Counted from the stretch's first letter, positions 7,268 to 52,181 are shown. The stretch is DNA of 64,000 nt from Planctomycetota bacterium (GCA_026184295.1 JAHCJK010000002.1:10946-74945), one strand, 5' to 3'. The notes: generated by a model not told the origin, from the sequence alone. Numbers and translations: made by a program.

Positions 7268-7903
<636 letters not shown>

Positions 7904-8002
7904 GGAAGACTCCCCGCGGAACCACGATGAAGGAACGGAATGCAACCCCCGGGGCCCAGTGGGCCGTCTATACTACGAACGAATGAGGGATTCGGTTCGG
8001 GC

Positions 8003-8034
8003 AAAAAAAATCCCCTTCCTTGCGGAAGGGGATT
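8003..8034 (-). terminator. rho-independent terminator downstream of 8065..8703 gene
   Basis: On minus strand GGAAGGGGATT stem (pairs AATCCCCTTCC, loop GCAA) followed by TTTTTTTT. Confidence 0.55.
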
Positions 8035-8064
8035 GCTAAAGCAGCTTGTAAGGGTCCGTGGAAA

Positions 8065-8703
8065 TCAGTCGGCCTTCAGCGCCGAGTCGTCATCACCGTT
8101 CGAAGATTCGGCGGTGTAGATGTCGTCGTCGCCCGAGCTGATCTTGCGGGTCTTTCTGTCCAGGAACTCCACCGAGCCACCGACGACCAAGAAGTTCTGG
8201 CCGACGCCGGCGGTGCCCGAACGGCCGTGGTTCGTCGAATTGTTGCCGACCGGTCCGGTGCCGTAATCGCCCGCGAGACCGCCCACGGCGCGCGTGGGAA
8301 GCTGGTCGGGCTGGAACCCGTACTTGGTGTACGTGTTATCCATGTTCGGCGTGCCACCGTTGCTCGTGTTGGCCACGGGCGGCGTCCCCAGGATCTTATC
8401 CAGCGAGGGCGACGAGGGGCACGAGAAACAGCGGGGGTCCTTGACATACGCGTCGTACAGCAGGTTCAACGACTTGCAGGCGCTGGTGCCGGAGGTCGGC
8501 ATCTTGCCCAAGTTCGATGAAACGTCGCTGTACAACTGGCATCCTTTGCCGATCTGCGACAGGTTGCTGGCACAAGACGTACGCCGCGCGGACTCGCGAG
8601 CGCGAGCCAACACGGGAAGAATAAGACCTGCCAGGATTGCAATGATCGCGATTACAACCAGAAGCTCGATCAGCGTGAAGCCATCCTTCCTCGACTTGTT
8701 CAT
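8065..8703 (-). CDS. DUF1559 (H-X9-DG) protein with prepilin-type N-terminal domain, paralog of 7268..7903
   Basis: [41 protein letters not shown]. Same architecture and ~60% identity to neighbour. Confidence 0.8.
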
Positions 8704-8994
8704 GCATTCACCCCCTTTCGGTGCGAGGACATCTCTTTGTGTGGCGGTTAACAACACTAAAACTCATTACAGCATCCTTTTTCATGTGTGTCAACGAACT
8801 ATCTAACCGTTTGTTGTTTAAGAAAATATACATTTGCACCCGTGCCTGAAAATCTCGCGACTGATCCTTCTACGAACGTCTGTTCTACGCGGTTCGGTTG
8901 AATCTTCGGACCTTGGCAAGTCGATTAAAAGACTTAGAAGTTTTCCGAGAATTGCTACCACGGTACCCTGGGGCCGAAAAAGCGGGAGCAGCCT

Positions 8995-9777: not shown

Positions 9778-10485
9778 ATGGCTCGTGGCTTGATTGCGCT
9801 GGCGGTGATCGTGGCCCTGGTGGTCATCGTGGTGGCCTTGGGCTCGAGCAAGTCCAGCGGCGACAAACCCACGCCCCCTGCCACGCCGAACACGCCCGGC
9901 ACCCCCGCGACACCCGGCACGCCGGGCACGCCCTCGGCCGTCACGCCGGCCGTCGTGACGCCGGTCAAGATCGTGATCGAGTGCGAGAAGCCCACCAAGC
10001 TGGAAGACAAGGCGCCCGACGGCACGGTGGTGATGCGCATCGCCTCGGTCCACATGGGCAAGGCGATGGGCTACCTCGAAATCCCCGACGGCTGGATGCA
10101 TAGCTGCGGCCTCGACACCACCGAATTGAAGACCGGCGGGGGCAAGCTGCCCGGCAAGGCGATCTACGAGTTCGAAGTCCCGCGCGAGGACGAGTACTAC
10201 GTCTTCCTGCGCGCGAAGTGGTTCGATTCCTGCGGGGATTCGGTCTTCCTCAAGCTCGACGACCAGCCGTACCTCGACCTGCGCGACGACGAAGGCAAGA
10301 TCAGCGAGTCGGAGTTCAAGTGGGCCTGGCATCCCTACAAGGATGCGGCCAAGATGAAGGCCTTCAAGCTCGCCAAGGGCAAGCACACCTTCGAACTCAA
10401 CACGAAGGAAGACGGCCCGCAGTTCGACAAGATTCTGATCGCGACCGACGCCAACTCGCCGGCGGAAGACGAAGTCGATCCGTAA
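9778..10485 (+). CDS. hypothetical secreted/membrane-anchored protein with Pro/Thr-rich linker and beta-rich C-domain
   Basis: N-terminal hydrophobic anchor, PTPPATPNTPGTPATPGTPGTP linker, globular C-domain. AAAGGA SD. Confidence 0.55.
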   Translation: MARGLIALAVIVALVVIVVALGSSKSSGDKPTPPATPNTPGTPATPGTPGTPSAVTPAVVTPVKIVIECEKPTKLEDKAPDGTVVMRIASVHMGKAMGYLEIPDGWMHSCGLDTTELKTGGGKLPGKAIYEFEVPREDEYYVFLRAKWFDSCGDSVFLKLDDQPYLDLRDDEGKISESEFKWAWHPYKDAAKMKAFKLAKGKHTFELNTKEDGPQFDKILIATDANSPAEDEVDP

Positions 10486-17737: not shown

Positions 17738-17909
17738 GCGCCACTTAGCGGAACGCGGGCGGGGCGCGCCGGAGCCCCGAGCCTAAGGCTCGAAGAATTC
17801 CGCGCCCGGCTCGTCACATATATAGGGAGAGGTGCCTGGTTGACCCTCTGCCGCATCCTCTTAAGATAAGAGGAGTGGTTGAGGGTTTCTCTTGGTTGGG
17901 AGATCGCCC

Positions 17910-18863
17910 ATGACACGCATGATCGCCTGCGTGCTCGCGAGCCTGATGCTGGCCGTCCTGGTCCAGCACGCCGCGCGCGCCGAAAGCACCGACGAGATCG
18001 TCAAGCTGGCCGAGAAAGGCATCGGCGAGGACGTGCTGCTGGCCGCCGTGGACCGCAGCGACAAGGGCTTCAGCCTTACCGCCGACGACATCATCAAGCT
18101 CAAGCAGGCCCACGTGCCCGAAAAGGTCATCGCGGCCATGCTGCGCAAGAAGCCGGCCGCCGCGCCCGCGGGCCAGCCCGCGCCCGCCGAAGCGGCCGAC
18201 GTGCGCATCGAGAAGGCCGGCGAGACCGGCACGCTGAACCTCGAGAACGTGGACGACCGCGCCTGGGCCTACCGCTTCGACCTGGCCTCGCACCTGCTGT
18301 GGATCACCCCCGCGGGCGAGGACGAGAAGAAGACCATGACGCCGCACGGCGGCGTGAGCCTGAGCGTGCCGAAGGGCGCGTACGAAGTGCGCTACGCCGG
18401 CGAGGCCTCCGGGCAGGTCTTCAACGTCCCGGCCGGCGAGAAGGCCCTGCTGCTCTTCAGCCGCGTGGAGACCGAGGAGTTCGAGGGGCTGTACGTCAGC
18501 GTCTTCGAACGCGGCGAACGCCGCGCGGGCGGGCGCCTGGCCGTGTTGCGCCAGACCAAGAAGCCCGCGCAGACGCAGGCGACCTACGAACGCATCCCCG
18601 CGCGCGCCGAGGAACCGGCGTACCAGTATGAGCAGCCCCGCGCGACCGAGCGCGTCGTGGAACGCGTCGTCGAGCCCTCGACGACGGTGATCTACCGCGA
18701 GCCCGCGCCCGTGTACGTCTATCCTTCGTATCCGTCGTACCCGTACTACTACCGCCCGTACTGCTACCCGCATTCGTACTACCCGTACAATTCGGCGAGC
18801 TTCCGCTACAGCAACTACGGCCGCCGCAGCGGATTCAGCATTGGAGTCGGCGTCGGCTGGTAA
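17910..18863 (+). CDS. hypothetical secreted protein with Tyr/Pro-rich C-terminus
   Basis: Signal peptide MTRMIACVLASLMLAVLVQHAARA. C-terminal YVYPSYPSYPYYYRPYCYPHSYYPY low-complexity tail. Confidence 0.55.
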   Translation: MTRMIACVLASLMLAVLVQHAARAESTDEIVKLAEKGIGEDVLLAAVDRSDKGFSLTADDIIKLKQAHVPEKVIAAMLRKKPAAAPAGQPAPAEAADVRIEKAGETGTLNLENVDDRAWAYRFDLASHLLWITPAGEDEKKTMTPHGGVSLSVPKGAYEVRYAGEASGQVFNVPAGEKALLLFSRVETEEFEGLYVSVFERGERRAGGRLAVLRQTKKPAQTQATYERIPARAEEPAYQYEQPRATERVVERVVEPSTTVIYREPAPVYVYPSYPSYPYYYRPYCYPHSYYPYNSASFRYSNYGRRSGFSIGVGVGW

Positions 18864-20197: not shown

Positions 20198-20725
20198 ATG
20201 TCCTCGTTCAAGCTTCTTAAAAAACGTTCGTTGCATTCGTTCCGCGTCTTCGAGATCCGCCAGGAGACCTGGCGCGGCCCCGACAAGCGCACCTTCGAGC
20301 GCCAGACGGTCGTGCATCCCGGCGCCGTGGCCGTCGTGCCGTTCGACCGCCGCGGGCGCATCCTCACGATCAAGCAGTTCCGCCCCGCCGTGAACCAGAT
20401 TCTGCTCGAAATCCCCGCCGGCACGCTGGAAGCCGGCGAGCAGCCGCTCGCCTGCGCCAGGCGCGAACTGATCGAAGAGACCGGCTTCGCGGCCCGCAAG
20501 TGGCAGCGCCTGGGCGCGATCTTCACCGCGCCGGGCTTCTGCAGCGAAAAAATCCACATCTTCAAGGCCTGGGACCTCGTTCCCGCCTTCCTCGAAAAGG
20601 ACGCCGACGAACACATCGACCTCCACCCGCTCTCGCGCGAACAGATCCGCCGCCAGATCCGCAATGGGCGCATCTGCGACGCGAAGACCCTCAGCGCGCT
20701 GCTGTACCTCCAGCTCCAGGGCTGA
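20198..20725 (+). CDS. NUDIX hydrolase (ADP-ribose pyrophosphatase-like)
   Basis: Nudix box [22 protein letters not shown]. Confidence 0.75.
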
Positions 20726-20759
20726 TACGATCCCCCGCAAGGAACTCCGGGACACGCGC

Positions 20760-21506
20760 ATGCCGACAGGTTTTACGCTCTGGTTCACCGGGCTCTCGGG
20801 CTCGGGCAAATCGACGCTCGCCCACGCGGTGGCGGATGCGCTGGCCCGCGCCGGCCGCGCCGTGGACTTGCTCGACGGCGACGTCGTGCGCCAGGAACTG
20901 AGCAAGGGCCTGGGCTTCGGCAAGGATGACCGCGAAACGAACATCCGCCGCATCGGCTTCGTCGCGAGCCTGATCACCAAGCACGGCGGCGTGGCGATCA
21001 CCGCCGCGATCAGCCCGTACCGCGCGGGGCGCGAGGCCAACCGCACGCGCATCGGGCGCTTCGTCGAGGTCTACTGCAAGTGCCCGCTGGCCGCGTGCGA
21101 GGCGCGCGACGTGAAGGGCCTGTACAAGAAGGCGCGCCAGGCCGCCGCCGACGGCAAGCCGATGCAGTTCACCGGCGTGGACGATCCTTACGAGGAACCG
21201 CTCGCGCCGGAGATCGTCGTCGAGACGGACAAGCTGAGCATCAAGGAAGGCGCGGACCTGATCCTGAAGCGCCTGCACGAACTCGGCTACCTGGACGAGA
21301 CGCTCGAGGCCGCCCGCGACGCGAACGCGCATCACGAGCAGTTGCCGGAGGAACTGGTGGAGAAGGCCGCCGCGGCGTTCAAGCAGGCCGGGCGCGTCCA
21401 CACCCAGGTGCTGATGGACGAACTCCACGTCGGTTTCGCCACCGCCGCGCGCCTGATCGACCGCCTGAGCGACGACGGCCGGCTGACCGCGAGCGTGCGC
21501 GGCTAA
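20760..21506 (+). CDS. cysC: adenylyl-sulfate kinase with C-terminal FtsK-gamma-like winged-helix extension
   Basis: [18 protein letters not shown]-loop and full APS-kinase core (~190 aa). Extra ~55 aa tail [30 protein letters not shown] resembles the FtsK gamma domain. ORF track start 20664 trimmed to ATG 20760. Confidence 0.85.
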
Positions 21507-21518
21507 GGGTTGGTTCCG

Positions 21519-21962
21519 ATGCGCTTCGTCCTGCTCCACCACACCGGCTGGCCCGGACGCGAAGACCACTACGACCTGATGCTCCAGATGGAAGAAGGCG
21601 CGGGCGACTTCGACCCGGTGCTCAAGACCTTCGCCTCGCTTACCGACGAATGCCCCGACGGGCGCAGCCACGCCGATTCCCGCGCGCGCGGCGCCGCCAC
21701 GGGGGACCCCAGCGCGCAGACGAACCTGCTGCGGCTGATCGCCGACCACCGCCGCGCGTACCTGACGCTGGAAGGCCCGTTGAGCGGCGGGCGGGGGCGC
21801 GTCTCGCGGGTGGACGAAGGCGCGTTCGAATGGATCGAGGCGCCCGACGAGGGCCTGCAGCAGCTCCGCTTCACGCTCAACGGGGTGAAGCTGAAAGGCG
21901 GCCACCGCCTGCGCCACATGGGCGGCGGCATCTACTCGTTCGAACGGCTTAAGCGGGTGTAA
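21519..21962 (+). CDS. LigD 3'-phosphoesterase-domain-like protein (standalone)
   Basis: RFVLLHHTGWPGREDHYDLML resembles the FVVQKHxxxxLHYDLRLE signature of the LigD phosphoesterase domain. Confidence 0.55.
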   Translation: MRFVLLHHTGWPGREDHYDLMLQMEEGAGDFDPVLKTFASLTDECPDGRSHADSRARGAATGDPSAQTNLLRLIADHRRAYLTLEGPLSGGRGRVSRVDEGAFEWIEAPDEGLQQLRFTLNGVKLKGGHRLRHMGGGIYSFERLKRV

Positions 21963-48583: not shown

Positions 48584-49612
48584 TTAATTGCCGGAGTAGT
48601 TGTGGATGCTCTCGACGAGCGGCAGTTCCTTGTGGTTCTCGTACCCCACGGACCAGTTGGCCGAGGACTTCAGGGCCGTCAGCGAGGGGTTCGCGCCGCC
48701 GGCGCCCGAGTTCCAGCCCATGTGGTCGGACTCGATGACGAAGTCGTAGTCCGCGCGCCATTGCGTGGTCTTGGTCTCGCGTTCGATGCGGCGGTCGGTC
48801 TCGATCTGCACGGGGCGGATGAAGCCCCCGCGCATGACGCCCGGACCGGCCAGAAGGGTGATGTACTTGTCGTACCCGGCGTCGGCGACGGTCAGGTCGG
48901 CGTTGTCCACGAAGGCGCGTTCCATGCCGTACACGTTGCGGCCGTCGTCGCCCTGGAGGTGCAGGCCCGCGACCATGTCGATGGCGCGGCCGTTCGCGTC
49001 GGTGCTGAGGTCCTTCTTCACCTCGGCGCGGGCGAGCAGCCAGCGCAGCACGCCGACGCGGTCGCCCATGAGGAAGCGGGCGCGGTCCAGCACGTTCGGG
49101 TCGAAGTTGGTGCGGGTCGAAGCGTTCCAGACGGTGTCCGTGTGCGCGCCGGCCGTCATCGCTTCCACCATGCCGATCAACGCCGCGATGAAGATGTTGC
49201 TCATGTCGTCGGCGACGATCTCGCCGGCCTGCCGGCCGAGTTCCGCGCTGATCTGCGCGGGCGAGAGGCCCATGAGGAAGATGTCGTCGGTGAACTCGAC
49301 GAGCGGAGTGCGGCGGTTCAGGATCACGCCCTTGTTGTTCCCGCCTTCCACCTTCACGGCCGTCAGCGCGCTGTTGCTCGTGATGTCGCGCCGTTCCGCG
49401 GTAACCGCGCGCTTGAAGTACGGGTTCTCCGTGTACTGCCCGCCCTTGCCGGCGTAGGCCGGCTGGTTCTGCAGGAAGATCGGGCGCTCGGGACCGCCGA
49501 CCCAGGTCTTGAGCAGTTCGTAGGAGCGCGTCACGAACGCCTTTTGCATGTGGGCGTTCATGATCTGCGGCACGGGCGTGAAGTCCGAAGGGAGCGAAGT
49601 TCCGGTTGCCAT
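48584..49612 (-). CDS. phage major capsid (coat) protein
   Basis: 342 aa. Position directly after scaffold gene in terS-terL-portal-scaffold-coat order. Confidence 0.65.
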   Translation of the reverse strand: MATGTSLPSDFTPVPQIMNAHMQKAFVTRSYELLKTWVGGPERPIFLQNQPAYAGKGGQYTENPYFKRAVTAERRDITSNSALTAVKVEGGNNKGVILNRRTPLVEFTDDIFLMGLSPAQISAELGRQAGEIVADDMSNIFIAALIGMVEAMTAGAHTDTVWNASTRTNFDPNVLDRARFLMGDRVGVLRWLLARAEVKKDLSTDANGRAIDMVAGLHLQGDDGRNVYGMERAFVDNADLTVADAGYDKYITLLAGPGVMRGGFIRPVQIETDRRIERETKTTQWRADYDFVIESDHMGWNSGAGGANPSLTALKSSANWSVGYENHKELPLVESIHNYSGN

Positions 49613-50573: not shown

Positions 50574-52181
50574 TCAGTCCTCGCGCTCGGCGGGTTTTTC
50601 GGCCGGACCTTTTTTCCTGCCTTGGTCGGGAGCCGGTGGCGGTTCGGGCGGCTTGAGGGCGTTGCGCAGCGCGGCCTCCGGCCGCGGGTCCTTGTCGCGA
50701 AGCGCTTCGATCTCCTTCTTGATCTCGTCGAACGATTGCTCGTCGAGGTTCGGGAGCAGGCCTTGCACGCCCTTAAGCAGCAGTTGAATCGCGGCGCCGT
50801 TGACGCCGAGCGCGAGGAAGAAATCGACGGCCTCGGACAGGGAGGCGAATTCTTCCGCGGGGCTCGCAATGTCGAAGCTGTCCGGGAAGGTAATGGAGAT
50901 CGCCTTGGCGTCCGTTTGGCCTTCCGCGCGGCCGATGACTTCGAGCAACCACTGAAAGCCGGCCTGCAGGCAGATGCTGAGGAGAAAGAGAATCCGTTCT
51001 TCCGTGGTCTTGAACGTCCAGGCCTTCGAGACGCCCGACTGTTCGACCGCGACCGGAAGCGCCGCCGCCCCGTTCTTCCCGCCCGCGTCCTTCGCCTTGG
51101 ACACGAGCATCTGATGGATCGTCATGAGGTGCTGGATCGGCTGCGCGTCGGTATGCACGAATTCGAGGGCTTCGCCTTCGTTTCCCGTCAGCGCGTTCTT
51201 GTTCTTAAGCGGAATGAACCGGGAAGTTCCCAGTTCGAGTTCTTCGATCTCATCTTCGGTTCGATCTGTTTTGAGCGTGAGGATCGGGCAGAGCATGTAG
51301 GCCTGCCAAAGCAGTTCGCTCAATACCCACATGGCCGCAACGTCGGCCTGCGCGGCGCCCGCGAGGATCGGACGGCCGATCTTGTCCTTCTTCACCGGGA
51401 AGGGATGGAAAAAGCGGAAGGGAACGATGCCCGCGTTCGCCGCATCGGTAAAGCCGTGCTTGACGGGCGGGAAGGTTTCGATGCTGTATTTGCCGTCCTG
51501 AGTCGGCTGTTCAAGCTCCGTGATCTTGAACAGGGATATGTTCTCCCGGTCCACGATCCGGACGGTGTGGACCTTGACCGGTTTCGCGTTCCAGGTACCG
51601 GCCTCCAGGGAGACTTCGTGGAGCTTCACGTACACCAGGCCTTCGGCGTTCGAGGAGAAGTTGAGAATCTGCTCCGCCGAGTAGATCGCCATGTAGACGC
51701 GGCCGAGATCGCGGCTTTTCTTCTCGGCCATGGAAATCTCTTTACCCTGGAGTTCCTTGGGGACCGGGCGGCGGTCCAGAAGGATGCCGTGAAAGCCGTT
51801 GCACTGATCCAGCTCCGAGGACTTGGCGACGACGTCGAGCAGGGTCATGCCGGAAAGGGTCGCCTGCGTTTCAAGGTACTTCATCGAATCGGGCAGGGTG
51901 ATCGCGGGCGGAGTACGGCAAAGCGCGCCCTGGCGCGACTGGAGAATCCCGGGGGTCTCGGCGAAGACCGGCGTAAGACGCTTGCGCTTATCGTACTCTT
52001 TCTCGTGTTCGTTGAGGTGCTGCGGAAGGTACGTCTCCGTCTTCATGGCCGCGGGGCCTTCGAGCACGTCCTCGACGATCATCCATTGCTTCTGAAGCTC
52101 GTCGAGGTCGGAGCGTTTGGACAATAGCGCAGCCGCCAATTCGTCGGTCTTGGGAACGGCAGCCGGGGTTTGGATCGCCAC
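50574..52181 (-). CDS. phage portal protein
   Basis: 535 aa, directly downstream of terminase large subunit. Confidence 0.65.
   Translation of the reverse strand: MAIQTPAAVPKTDELAAALLSKRSDLDELQKQWMIVEDVLEGPAAMKTETYLPQHLNEHEKEYDKRKRLTPVFAETPGILQSRQGALCRTPPAITLPDSMKYLETQATLSGMTLLDVVAKSSELDQCNGFHGILLDRRPVPKELQGKEISMAEKKSRDLGRVYMAIYSAEQILNFSSNAEGLVYVKLHEVSLEAGTWNAKPVKVHTVRIVDRENISLFKITELEQPTQDGKYSIETFPPVKHGFTDAANAGIVPFRFFHPFPVKKDKIGRPILAGAAQADVAAMWVLSELLWQAYMLCPILTLKTDRTEDEIEELELGTSRFIPLKNKNALTGNEGEALEFVHTDAQPIQHLMTIHQMLVSKAKDAGGKNGAAALPVAVEQSGVSKAWTFKTTEERILFLLSICLQAGFQWLLEVIGRAEGQTDAKAISITFPDSFDIASPAEEFASLSEAVDFFLALGVNGAAIQLLLKGVQGLLPNLDEQSFDEIKKEIEALRDKDPRPEAALRNALKPPEPPPAPDQGRKKGPAEKPAERED

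Follow-up and report, generated by a model that had tools for sequence, protein, structure and literature searches.

A predicted APS kinase with a divergent, wing-less FtsK gamma-derived helix-turn-helix at its C-terminus in a narrow Planctomycetota lineage

Why should an enzyme of sulfate activation end in a domain related to the DNA-reading part of a chromosome translocase? This question is raised by a gene, cysC-gamma, at positions 20760..21506 (+ strand) of the window, the 64,000-nucleotide stretch of Planctomycetota DNA analysed here. A sequence-only reading had described its product as an APS kinase (CysC) with an FtsK-gamma-like winged helix and had noted that the gamma domain binds KOPS DNA. 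Based on the ORF and the sequence, the gene encodes 248 aa plus a stop codon, and the protein consists of three parts: an APS kinase domain (residues 3–178), a variable linker (residues 179–195), and a 53-residue three-helix domain (residues 196–248). As judged from sequence, these parts are a catalytically intact APS kinase, a flexible linker, and a divergent, wing-less helix-turn-helix (HTH) derived from FtsK gamma. The window has a G+C content of 65% and contains type IV pilin-like N_methyl/DUF1559 genes, typical of Planctomycetota.

The NCBI model of the same protein (P0001, MCW8128883.1, "adenylyl-sulfate kinase [Planctomycetota bacterium]") is longer, with 280 aa from the ATG at 20664, and overlaps the preceding gene by 62 nt. 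In the 248-aa reading, the N-terminus is in register with the N-termini of 33 homologues. Because the homologue N-termini all align there, the start at 20760 is right and P0001 is too long; a mis-called start was rejected on these grounds.

The kinase domain (20766..21293, + strand) was assigned from Pfam, NCBIfam, and structural comparison. Pfam APS_kinase (PF01583) matched residues 4–155 with an E-value of 6.9e-58 and 195.4 bits, far above the cut-off of 21.1. Similarly, TIGR00455 (213.3 bits against 138.7) and NF003013 (189.4 bits against 163) exceeded their cut-offs, and the match to PRK00889 covers residues 3–178. The P-loop and the sequence FTGVDDPYE are present, and the motifs GxSGxGKST, DGD..R, F-x-x-x-DR..NIRR, ISPY, KGLY, and FTGxDxPYE are all found in the window protein. 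These motifs are invariant or nearly so in an alignment (A1) of 34 sequences, including four ordinary CysC proteins from other phyla. Moreover, the AF2 model of the full protein has a mean pLDDT of 91, and Foldseek superimposed it on 5cb8 (TMt 0.94, rmsd 1.7 Å), 5cb6 (TMt 0.95, rmsd 1.4 Å), and 2gks_A (rmsd 1.1 Å). The kinase is 48–53% identical to solved APS kinases and 60–65% identical to ordinary CysC. It shares its fold and catalytic motifs with the stand-alone CysC of Synechocystis (5CB6/5CB8) and with the kinase domain of the Aquifex SAT-APS kinase (2GKS). Collectively, the family scores, the conserved motifs, and the superposition on solved structures indicate that the enzyme is a genuine APS kinase, and the conversion of APS and ATP to PAPS is its predicted activity. 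NCBI and JGI call its orthologues simply adenylyl-sulfate kinase.

One difference from solved APS kinases lies at the C-terminus. The 24 solved sequences that matched at E<=1e-20 stop by query residue 185, whereas the window protein continues; the extension, which had been put at about 55 residues, is real but 70 residues long (179–248), of which 52 align to FtsK gamma. Additionally, in contrast to the Aquifex enzyme, cysC-gamma has no fused or adjacent ATP sulfurylase. A second difference lies inside the kinase, in a clade-specific insertion of four residues in the lid (about residues 127–130; 21138..21149, + strand), observed from the spacing between the GLY and FTG motifs. This spacing is 20 residues in all 30 of the tailed sequences identified by regular expression and in the tailed fragment P0026, whereas it is 16 residues in 87 of 89 tail-less homologues. 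The remaining two tail-less sequences, with a spacing of 20 residues, look like contig-end fragments. The tail and the lid insertion always co-occur.

The C-terminal domain (21345..21503, + strand; residues 196–248) was compared with FtsK gamma by Pfam, hhalign, AF2, and Foldseek. In the window protein, FtsK_gamma (PF09397) matched residues 197–240 against profile positions 4–47 of 63 with an E-value of 1.8e-5, which is significant, although the score of 24.8 bits is below the gathering cut-off of 30.6. FtsK_gamma is the only family found consistently among the orthologous tails, 28 of 30 of which matched it at E<=0.01 (best E-value 2.8e-9). A profile of the 30 orthologous tails (A2) was then aligned by hhalign with one of 28 canonical gamma domains (A3), including that of E. 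coli, identical to PDB 2J5P; the probability was 98.4% and the E-value 7e-15 over 52 columns (196–247). A search of 1.84 billion representative proteins with the tail profile gave 107 matches at E<=1e-3. Beyond the CysC fusions, the matches that were inspected or scanned are FtsK_gamma-type domains, with E-values down to 1e-12; the exception among those scanned is P0163, a generic multi-HTH repeat protein. These domains occur in translocases, in numerous small proteins that carry two of them in tandem, and in a few fusions of other kinds. Searches of PDB sequences with the tail alone and with the tail profile retrieved weak unrelated matches and did not retrieve FtsK gamma.

Structural comparison points in the same direction. 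In the AF2 model of the tail alone, three helices (residues 197–210, 215–222, and 226–238) are predicted with a pLDDT of 90–93. All 50 matches listed by Foldseek against the PDB are winged-helix DNA-binding domains, of the DeoR, MntR/IdeR, AsnC, Z-alpha, and FtsK gamma types; their E-values are weak (>=0.1), as expected for a 60-residue query. Among the matches listed, the FtsK gamma structures 2ve8, 2ve9, and 5dcf combine the highest probability (0.97–0.99; TMq 0.64–0.73) with the lowest rmsd (1.1–2.2 Å). Since the model shows a folded three-helix domain and not a single amphipathic helix, a bacterial-microcompartment targeting peptide was rejected. From these profile and model comparisons, we conclude that the tail and the FtsK gamma domain are homologous, as the sequence-only reading had suspected. 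The three-helix HTH core is common to the tail and the FtsK/SpoIIIE gamma domains (PF09397; E. coli 2J5P, P. aeruginosa 2VE8/2VE9, and the XerD complex 5DCF), as are the motifs L-x-x-x-A, a glycine at the turn, and A-A-x-L-I-D-x-L-x-E-x-G, together with a flexible tether. However, FtsK gamma sits on a DNA pump, whereas the tail sits on a metabolic kinase, and an FtsK_SpoIIIE domain is absent from the Pfam scan of the protein.

The tail departs from canonical gamma domains in two respects. Firstly, it is shortened. In the hhalign register, the protein ends one residue after R247, which corresponds to E. coli FtsK H1316 at the start of the wing turn; thus, the second wing strand and the K-P-R-x-V-L segment are absent, and the wing consensus G-V-I-G-P-x-x-G-x-K-P-R-x-V-L is not found. 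The HTH core of the expected winged helix is retained, but its wing hairpin is not. Secondly, functional residues are replaced. In the same register, H214, M219, D220, F226, A227, T228, R231, D234, S237, and G240 correspond to S1283, Q1288, R1289, Y1295, N1296, R1297, R1300, E1303, E1306, and G1309 of E. coli FtsK, respectively. Across the 30 tails, Q1288, R1289, and Y1295, which hardly vary among gamma domains, and the consensus R1297 become L/M, variable, variable, and T, respectively. The R1289 equivalent is D220 in the window protein and K/R in 21 of 30 orthologues. As reported, alanine replacement of R1300, E1303, and E1306 together makes FtsK "KOPS-blind" (PMC2680272). At these positions, the tails have R (12/30) or H (12/30), D (28/30), and G, A, or S, respectively; the window protein has R231, D234, and S237, so that two of the three are retained in kind.

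R1289 forms a critical salt bridge to XerD, and the XerD contact of FtsK gamma is described as [quoted passage not shown] (PMC5052618). Furthermore, three gamma domains of the hexamer are needed per KOPS, and a single gamma domain binds KOPS poorly (PMC3384302). Because the wing is missing, the equivalents of R1289, Y1295, R1297, and E1306 are replaced, and a dimer would face a site that takes three gamma domains, neither function can be transferred to the tail. KOPS reading and XerD activation by the tail are unlikely.

The tails have instead acquired conserved residues of their own. E193, P196, L199, H214, L218, E221, L222, H223, G225, T228, A229, D234, and L236 are invariant or nearly invariant, and the family signature reads E-x-x-P-x-E-L ... 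H-T-x-V-L-L-x-E-L-H-V-G-x-x-T-A-A-x-L-I-D-x-L. In comparison with FtsK gamma, the invariant H214, H223, and T228 are features of the fusion tail alone. H214, T215, and T228 lie at helix N-termini, and basic residues occupy the HTH positions R212 (K/R in 27/30) and R235 (K/R in 25/30). The mean net charge is +1.2 for the tails and +0.1 for canonical gamma domains, a comparison that does not discriminate between the two.

The linker (21294..21344, + strand; residues 179–195) consists of gapped, variable columns in A1; it differs in both length and sequence, and one member carries a 16-residue insertion. At its end is a conserved (H-H)-E-[FYH]-[ILV]-P motif, of which E193 and P196 do not vary across the aligned tails. 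The AF2 pLDDT of the linker is 72–74 and falls below 50 for residues 190–192. Based on this variability and the low model confidence, the tail is predicted to behave like an independent tethered module. Gamma domains are likewise flexibly attached in published FtsK constructs (PMC3384302, PMC5052618).

To what extent the fusion is spread was determined in several databases. In a database of 5.8 billion clusters, the best 31 matches all have the tail; they are 245–263 aa long, apart from one fragment, and 52–100% identical to the window protein. From match 32 onwards, the homologues are 175–206 aa long without a tail or carry an ATP-sulfurylase domain. After 50% clustering of 1.84 billion proteins, the fusion is represented by one full-length sequence and two fragments. 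We also used a degenerate DNA pattern for the tail signature, which occurs once each in the window and in seven of seven loci and in none of the shuffled sequences. Among 185,579 species-representative genomes, this pattern found six loci, all in MAGs named "Planctomycetota bacterium" from groundwater, bioreactors, and peat. Assemblies from NCBI, JGI, ENA, and Logan contain this ORF uninterrupted on contigs independent of one another, which rules out a gene-fusion artefact. All full-length orthologues that were found retain the extension. Collectively, these results show that the fusion belongs to one narrow, uncultured Planctomycetota lineage. Within it, the full-length proteins are 53–78% identical, the 30 tails have nine invariant and eight nearly invariant columns, and mean column identity is 56% in the tail against 60% in the whole protein. 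This pattern of substitution indicates that the tail is under purifying selection.

A full-text search for "APS kinase" with "FtsK" turned up a single, unrelated genome paper and no description of this architecture; the parts themselves are known, and their combination is one not described before. Gamma domains outside translocases do occur elsewhere. The small terminase of phages Sam46 and Sam112 carries an N-terminal FtsK_gamma (PMC8190038), and our searches found small tandem-gamma proteins (P0122-P0148), a fusion with DnaJ (P0191), and a fusion with an RdgC-like region (P0205). The gamma domain can thus travel as a module and become fused to different proteins. Most partners of these non-translocase gamma domains handle DNA or mobile elements, and the domains keep the wing and the canonical residues; in contrast, the cysC tail is shortened and divergent and sits on a small-molecule kinase. 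In P0142, another of the proteins with a gamma domain, the N-terminus was taken as nuclease-like from reading its sequence.

Directly upstream of cysC-gamma lies a NUDIX hydrolase of the NudE/ADP-ribose pyrophosphatase type (20198..20725, + strand; 175 aa; PF00293, E-value 2.5e-16), whose best NCBIfam match is NudE with 94 bits, below the cut-off of 169. It ends 34 nt before the cysC-gamma start, and this adjacency is kept only in the closest relative, L001. Other genes within 10 kb encode CorA, SmpB, an M20 peptidase, a P-type ATPase, and a Ser/Thr kinase, among others. In the 33 larger ORFs of the window, Pfam found no ATP sulfurylase, CysD/N, CysH, or sulfotransferase domain, and in the 10 related loci no sulfotransferase, sulfurylase, or PAPS reductase is adjacent to cysC-gamma, so that its description as a standalone gene with no cysN/cysD nearby is borne out. 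Across the 11 distinct loci, the flanks differ, with one exception, a gene directly downstream.

This downstream gene (21519..21962, + strand) begins 12 nt past the cysC-gamma stop codon, is probably co-transcribed with it, and encodes a stand-alone protein of 147 aa resembling the LigD 3'-phosphoesterase (PE). As a single sequence, it matched Pfam LigD_N with 27.7 bits against a cut-off of 31.1, and TIGR02777 was also weak. A profile of 25 PE-like members searched against the PDB retrieved 3p43 (E-value 1.5e-13), 3p4h (5e-12), and 3n9b (7e-8), and the His, His-x-Asp, and His...Tyr motifs are aligned with those of solved PE domains and invariant. The position of LigD Arg52, a residue known from work of the Shuman laboratory, is presumably not conserved in the PE-like family. 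The gene is directly downstream in 6 of the 11 loci (the window, L001/L010, L005, L009, L012, and L013), where the copies are 64–78% identical, and it is not adjacent in L003, L006, L007, L008, and L011. In the L008 genome, a copy (P0232) is located elsewhere on the same 2.6-Mb contig, and two more cysC-gamma/PE-like pairs (P0004/P0230 and P0010/P0240) are suggested by the lengths of their contigs.

APS kinases are homodimers. In cysC-gamma, such a dimer would display two tethered HTH modules, and we propose that these tails bind duplex DNA in a non-KOPS manner. Bound to DNA, they may anchor the kinase to the nucleoid or to specific sites, which would serve localisation or gene-expression feedback, and the tail would neither guide a motor nor activate XerD. 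The kinase probably supplies PAPS, and the PE-like neighbour may handle a 3'-phosphorylated by-product, e.g. pAp. To the tail as a flexibly tethered, bivalent DNA-binding module, we assign a probability of about 0.45. The homology to FtsK gamma argues for it, as does the fact that all the structural neighbours listed bind DNA. Moreover, the HTH positions that usually face DNA still carry basic or polar residues (212, 214, 215, 228, 231, 235, and, in most orthologues, 220), and the tail does not fall below canonical gamma domains in net charge. However, the wing hairpin is lost, the equivalents of Q1288, R1289, Y1295, and R1297 are replaced, and a single gamma domain, of which KOPS takes three, is itself weak on this site (PMC3384302). 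The 300-nt upstream regions of the 11 loci share no motif, inverted repeat, or palindrome; in several loci, only 25–55 nt separate an upstream terminator-like hairpin from the start codon. In addition, it is hard to see why an APS kinase should be bound to DNA.

An arrangement of this kind would have parallels. The "trigger enzymes" BirA and NadR combine an enzyme with an N-terminal HTH, are structurally coupled, and act at defined operators. Like them, cysC-gamma places a nucleotide-using enzyme and an HTH in one oligomerising polypeptide, which would allow metabolite-linked gene control. Unlike in BirA and NadR, the HTH is C-terminal and follows a variable linker, and no operator was found upstream in the 11 loci. 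Because the linker is flexible, tethering or localisation is favoured over tight allosteric coupling of the BirA/NadR style.

Protein or metal docking is nearly as likely as DNA binding, although we hold it, too, only tentatively and regard it as the less probable of the two. Here, the tail would have been repurposed as a protein-docking or metal-binding module that recruits the kinase into a PAPS-handling complex, and helix 2, the turn, and the beginning of helix 3, which once faced DNA or XerD, would now contact a partner, for which the PE-like protein, ATP sulfurylase, and a sulfotransferase are candidates. The strictest of the new residues, H214, E221, H223, and T228, together with the HHE..P motif, are more reminiscent of a surface that binds protein or metal than of one that binds DNA. 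These family-specific invariant His, Glu, and Thr residues map exactly to the XerD-contact face (PMC5052618), several basic residues have gone along with the wing, and a conserved HHE[FY][IL]P motif precedes the domain. The PE-like gene directly downstream in 6 of 11 loci is also consistent with docking, but in the other five the tail is unchanged even though the gene is not adjacent. Furthermore, the known relatives and the structural neighbours of the domain all bind DNA.

Decay of the fusion into a functionless remnant is improbable. The tail is indeed shortened relative to canonical gamma domains, several residues conserved in that family are gone, and the fusion is limited to a small clade. 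Nevertheless, each of the roughly 31 clusters keeps a full-length tail, even where overall identity falls to 53%, and this tail has 17 invariant or nearly invariant columns, a mean column identity near that of the whole protein, and a confidently predicted fold (AF2). No frameshifted or tail-less member of the insertion clade was found, apart from the apparent contig-end fragments.

It is less probable still that the tail is a genuine FtsK gamma, reading a KOPS-like polar 8-mer, activating an XerD-type recombinase, or both. Apart from the homology, R231 and D234 match the KOPS-reading R1300 and E1303 (PMC2680272), and in L007 an XerC/D-type recombinase gene lies 1.1 kb upstream. However, such a neighbour occurs in 1 of 11 loci, and the position of R231 holds an arginine in just 12 of the 30 orthologues. 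The protein lacks a translocase motor that the tail could orient, its dimer stands against the three gamma domains per KOPS (PMC3384302), and the domain has no wing. At the equivalent of E1306, the tails have S, G, or A, and R1289, which is critical for XerD activation (PMC5052618), is replaced by D in the window protein.

We give equally little credence to the idea of a kinase tethered to DNA or structured RNA that phosphorylates the 3'-OH of a terminal adenosine, with the PE-like protein removing the phosphate to form a reversible 3'-end mark. The chemistry would be the same as on APS, and the lid insertion could open the APS pocket to a polymer end; the reading is placed this low because the kinase is 60–65% identical to ordinary CysC. 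Finally, a chance resemblance or an assembly or annotation artefact, which the single-sequence Pfam score below the gathering threshold and the PDB profile search without FtsK gamma might suggest, is practically discounted by the hhalign probability of 98.4%, the 28 of 30 matching tails, the gamma domains returned by the large-database search, and the same ORF on independent contigs from four assembly sources.

In evolutionary terms, FtsK gamma, the sequence-reading tip of a chromosome pump, has moved onto a small-molecule metabolic enzyme and was then reshaped, with its wing lost and a new invariant surface gained. If the tail binds DNA, sulfate activation (PAPS/pAp levels) would be tied to the chromosome or to the control of genes, and this in a phylum whose cell biology is unusual. 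Should it bind protein, it would be a bacterial case of a winged-helix domain turned from DNA reader to docking module. Until the protein is purified, practical use will be limited, and the clade itself is a small one of uncultured bacteria.

The recurrent pairing with the LigD-PE-like gene is a separate lead and a possible route for handling 3'-phosphorylated adenosine nucleotides. The PE-like family is small, with 61 proteins found, and the names given by the sources are all Planctomycetota or Phycisphaerae. Because one of its associations is with a maker of a 3'-phosphoadenosine nucleotide and another is with a pAp-destroying enzyme family, the substrates of the PE-like protein may be adenosine nucleotides with a 3'-phosphate, or similar ends. 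Distant members of the family (121–130 aa), encoded away from cysC, were observed directly upstream of a 301-aa PHP-domain protein on three independent contigs. In L014 and L015, the best NCBIfam matches of this PHP protein are "3',5'-nucleoside bisphosphate phosphatase" (198–212 bits, below the cut-off of 400) and RNase RNM.

Directly 3' of cysC-gamma, the gene for the APS kinase with the FtsK-gamma-like tail, lies a gene on the plus strand (window 21519..21962) that encodes a stand-alone LigD 3'-phosphoesterase-like (PE-like) protein of 147 aa. This order, with no gene between, is found at 6 of the 11 cysC-gamma loci compared; in the other five of these, the PE-like gene occupies positions 10816-11259 of L001 (the closest relative), 10757-11203 of L005, 5046-5486 of L009, 2976-3413 of L012, and 2274-1834 of L013. 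The profile of the PE-like family matches the solved PE domains 3p43, 3p4h, and 3n9b. The family is small and confined to Planctomycetota, and its members share the catalytic motifs H, HxD, and H...Y without variation. Additionally, the members paired with cysC-gamma carry an insertion of about 20 residues (DGRSHADSRARGAATGDPSAQ).

The distant PE-like members are 121-130 aa long, and on three independent contigs they are directly followed at the 3' side by a gene for a 301-aa PHP-domain protein. The two genes together span positions 6001-7335 of L014 and 6001-7348 of L015, and in both contigs the top NCBIfam match of the PHP protein, below the cut-off, is 3',5'-nucleoside bisphosphate (pAp) phosphatase / RNase RNM. 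The resemblance of this neighbor to such enzymes hints that the PE-like family acts on 3'-phosphorylated adenosine nucleotides or ends.

In the kinase domain of cysC-gamma, the lid segment is longer by an insertion of 4 residues (residues ~127-130; window 21138..21149). This insertion accompanies the gamma-like tail in all 30 sequences with a regex-defined tail and in one tailed fragment, and it occurs in none of 87 tail-less homologues; the exceptions are two further sequences, both apparent fragments. Outside CysC, the closest relatives of the tail are mostly small proteins of 130-270 aa (P0122-P0148 and others), which carry two tandem canonical FtsK_gamma domains and lack a motor. Among the 105 matched proteins, 55 have two FtsK_gamma domains, five have three, and two have six.

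Upstream, a NUDIX hydrolase gene (window 20198..20725, plus strand) ends 34 nt 5' of cysC. Its top match, with a score under the cut-off, is of the NudE / ADP-ribose pyrophosphatase type, and the adjacency is retained only in L001. Since APS is an ADP analogue, a functional link between the hydrolase and cysC is conceivable. The public model MCW8128883.1 (280 aa) adds window 20664..20759 at the 5' end and thereby overlaps the NUDIX gene; we rejected this start as 96 nt too far 5', as the N-termini of homologues favor the ATG at 20760.

In L006, a perfect 17-nt inverted repeat (CTTATGCTTTTGGAACG ... CGTTCCAAAAGCATAAG; ~9880-9945) lies 50-100 nt 5' of cysC-gamma. It was not seen in the other cysC-gamma loci and could be the terminator of the preceding gene. 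In L007, a XerC/D-type tyrosine recombinase gene (7882-8841) lies 1.1 kb 5' of cysC-gamma, probably by coincidence, because this proximity occurs in one of the 11 loci.

Elsewhere in the window, a 323-aa ORF (17892..18863, plus strand) is syntenic in L001 with 68% identity and gave no match in Pfam or NCBIfam, and a search of the whole window for tRNA genes found none. From ~30000 to 64000 runs a series of ORFs on the minus strand almost without Pfam matches. The exceptions are a Gp13-like major capsid (major head) protein (48587-49612, minus strand) and a portal protein matched in PHROG (50577-52181, minus strand). The series probably represents a prophage, or an element of phage origin, that fills the right half of the window.
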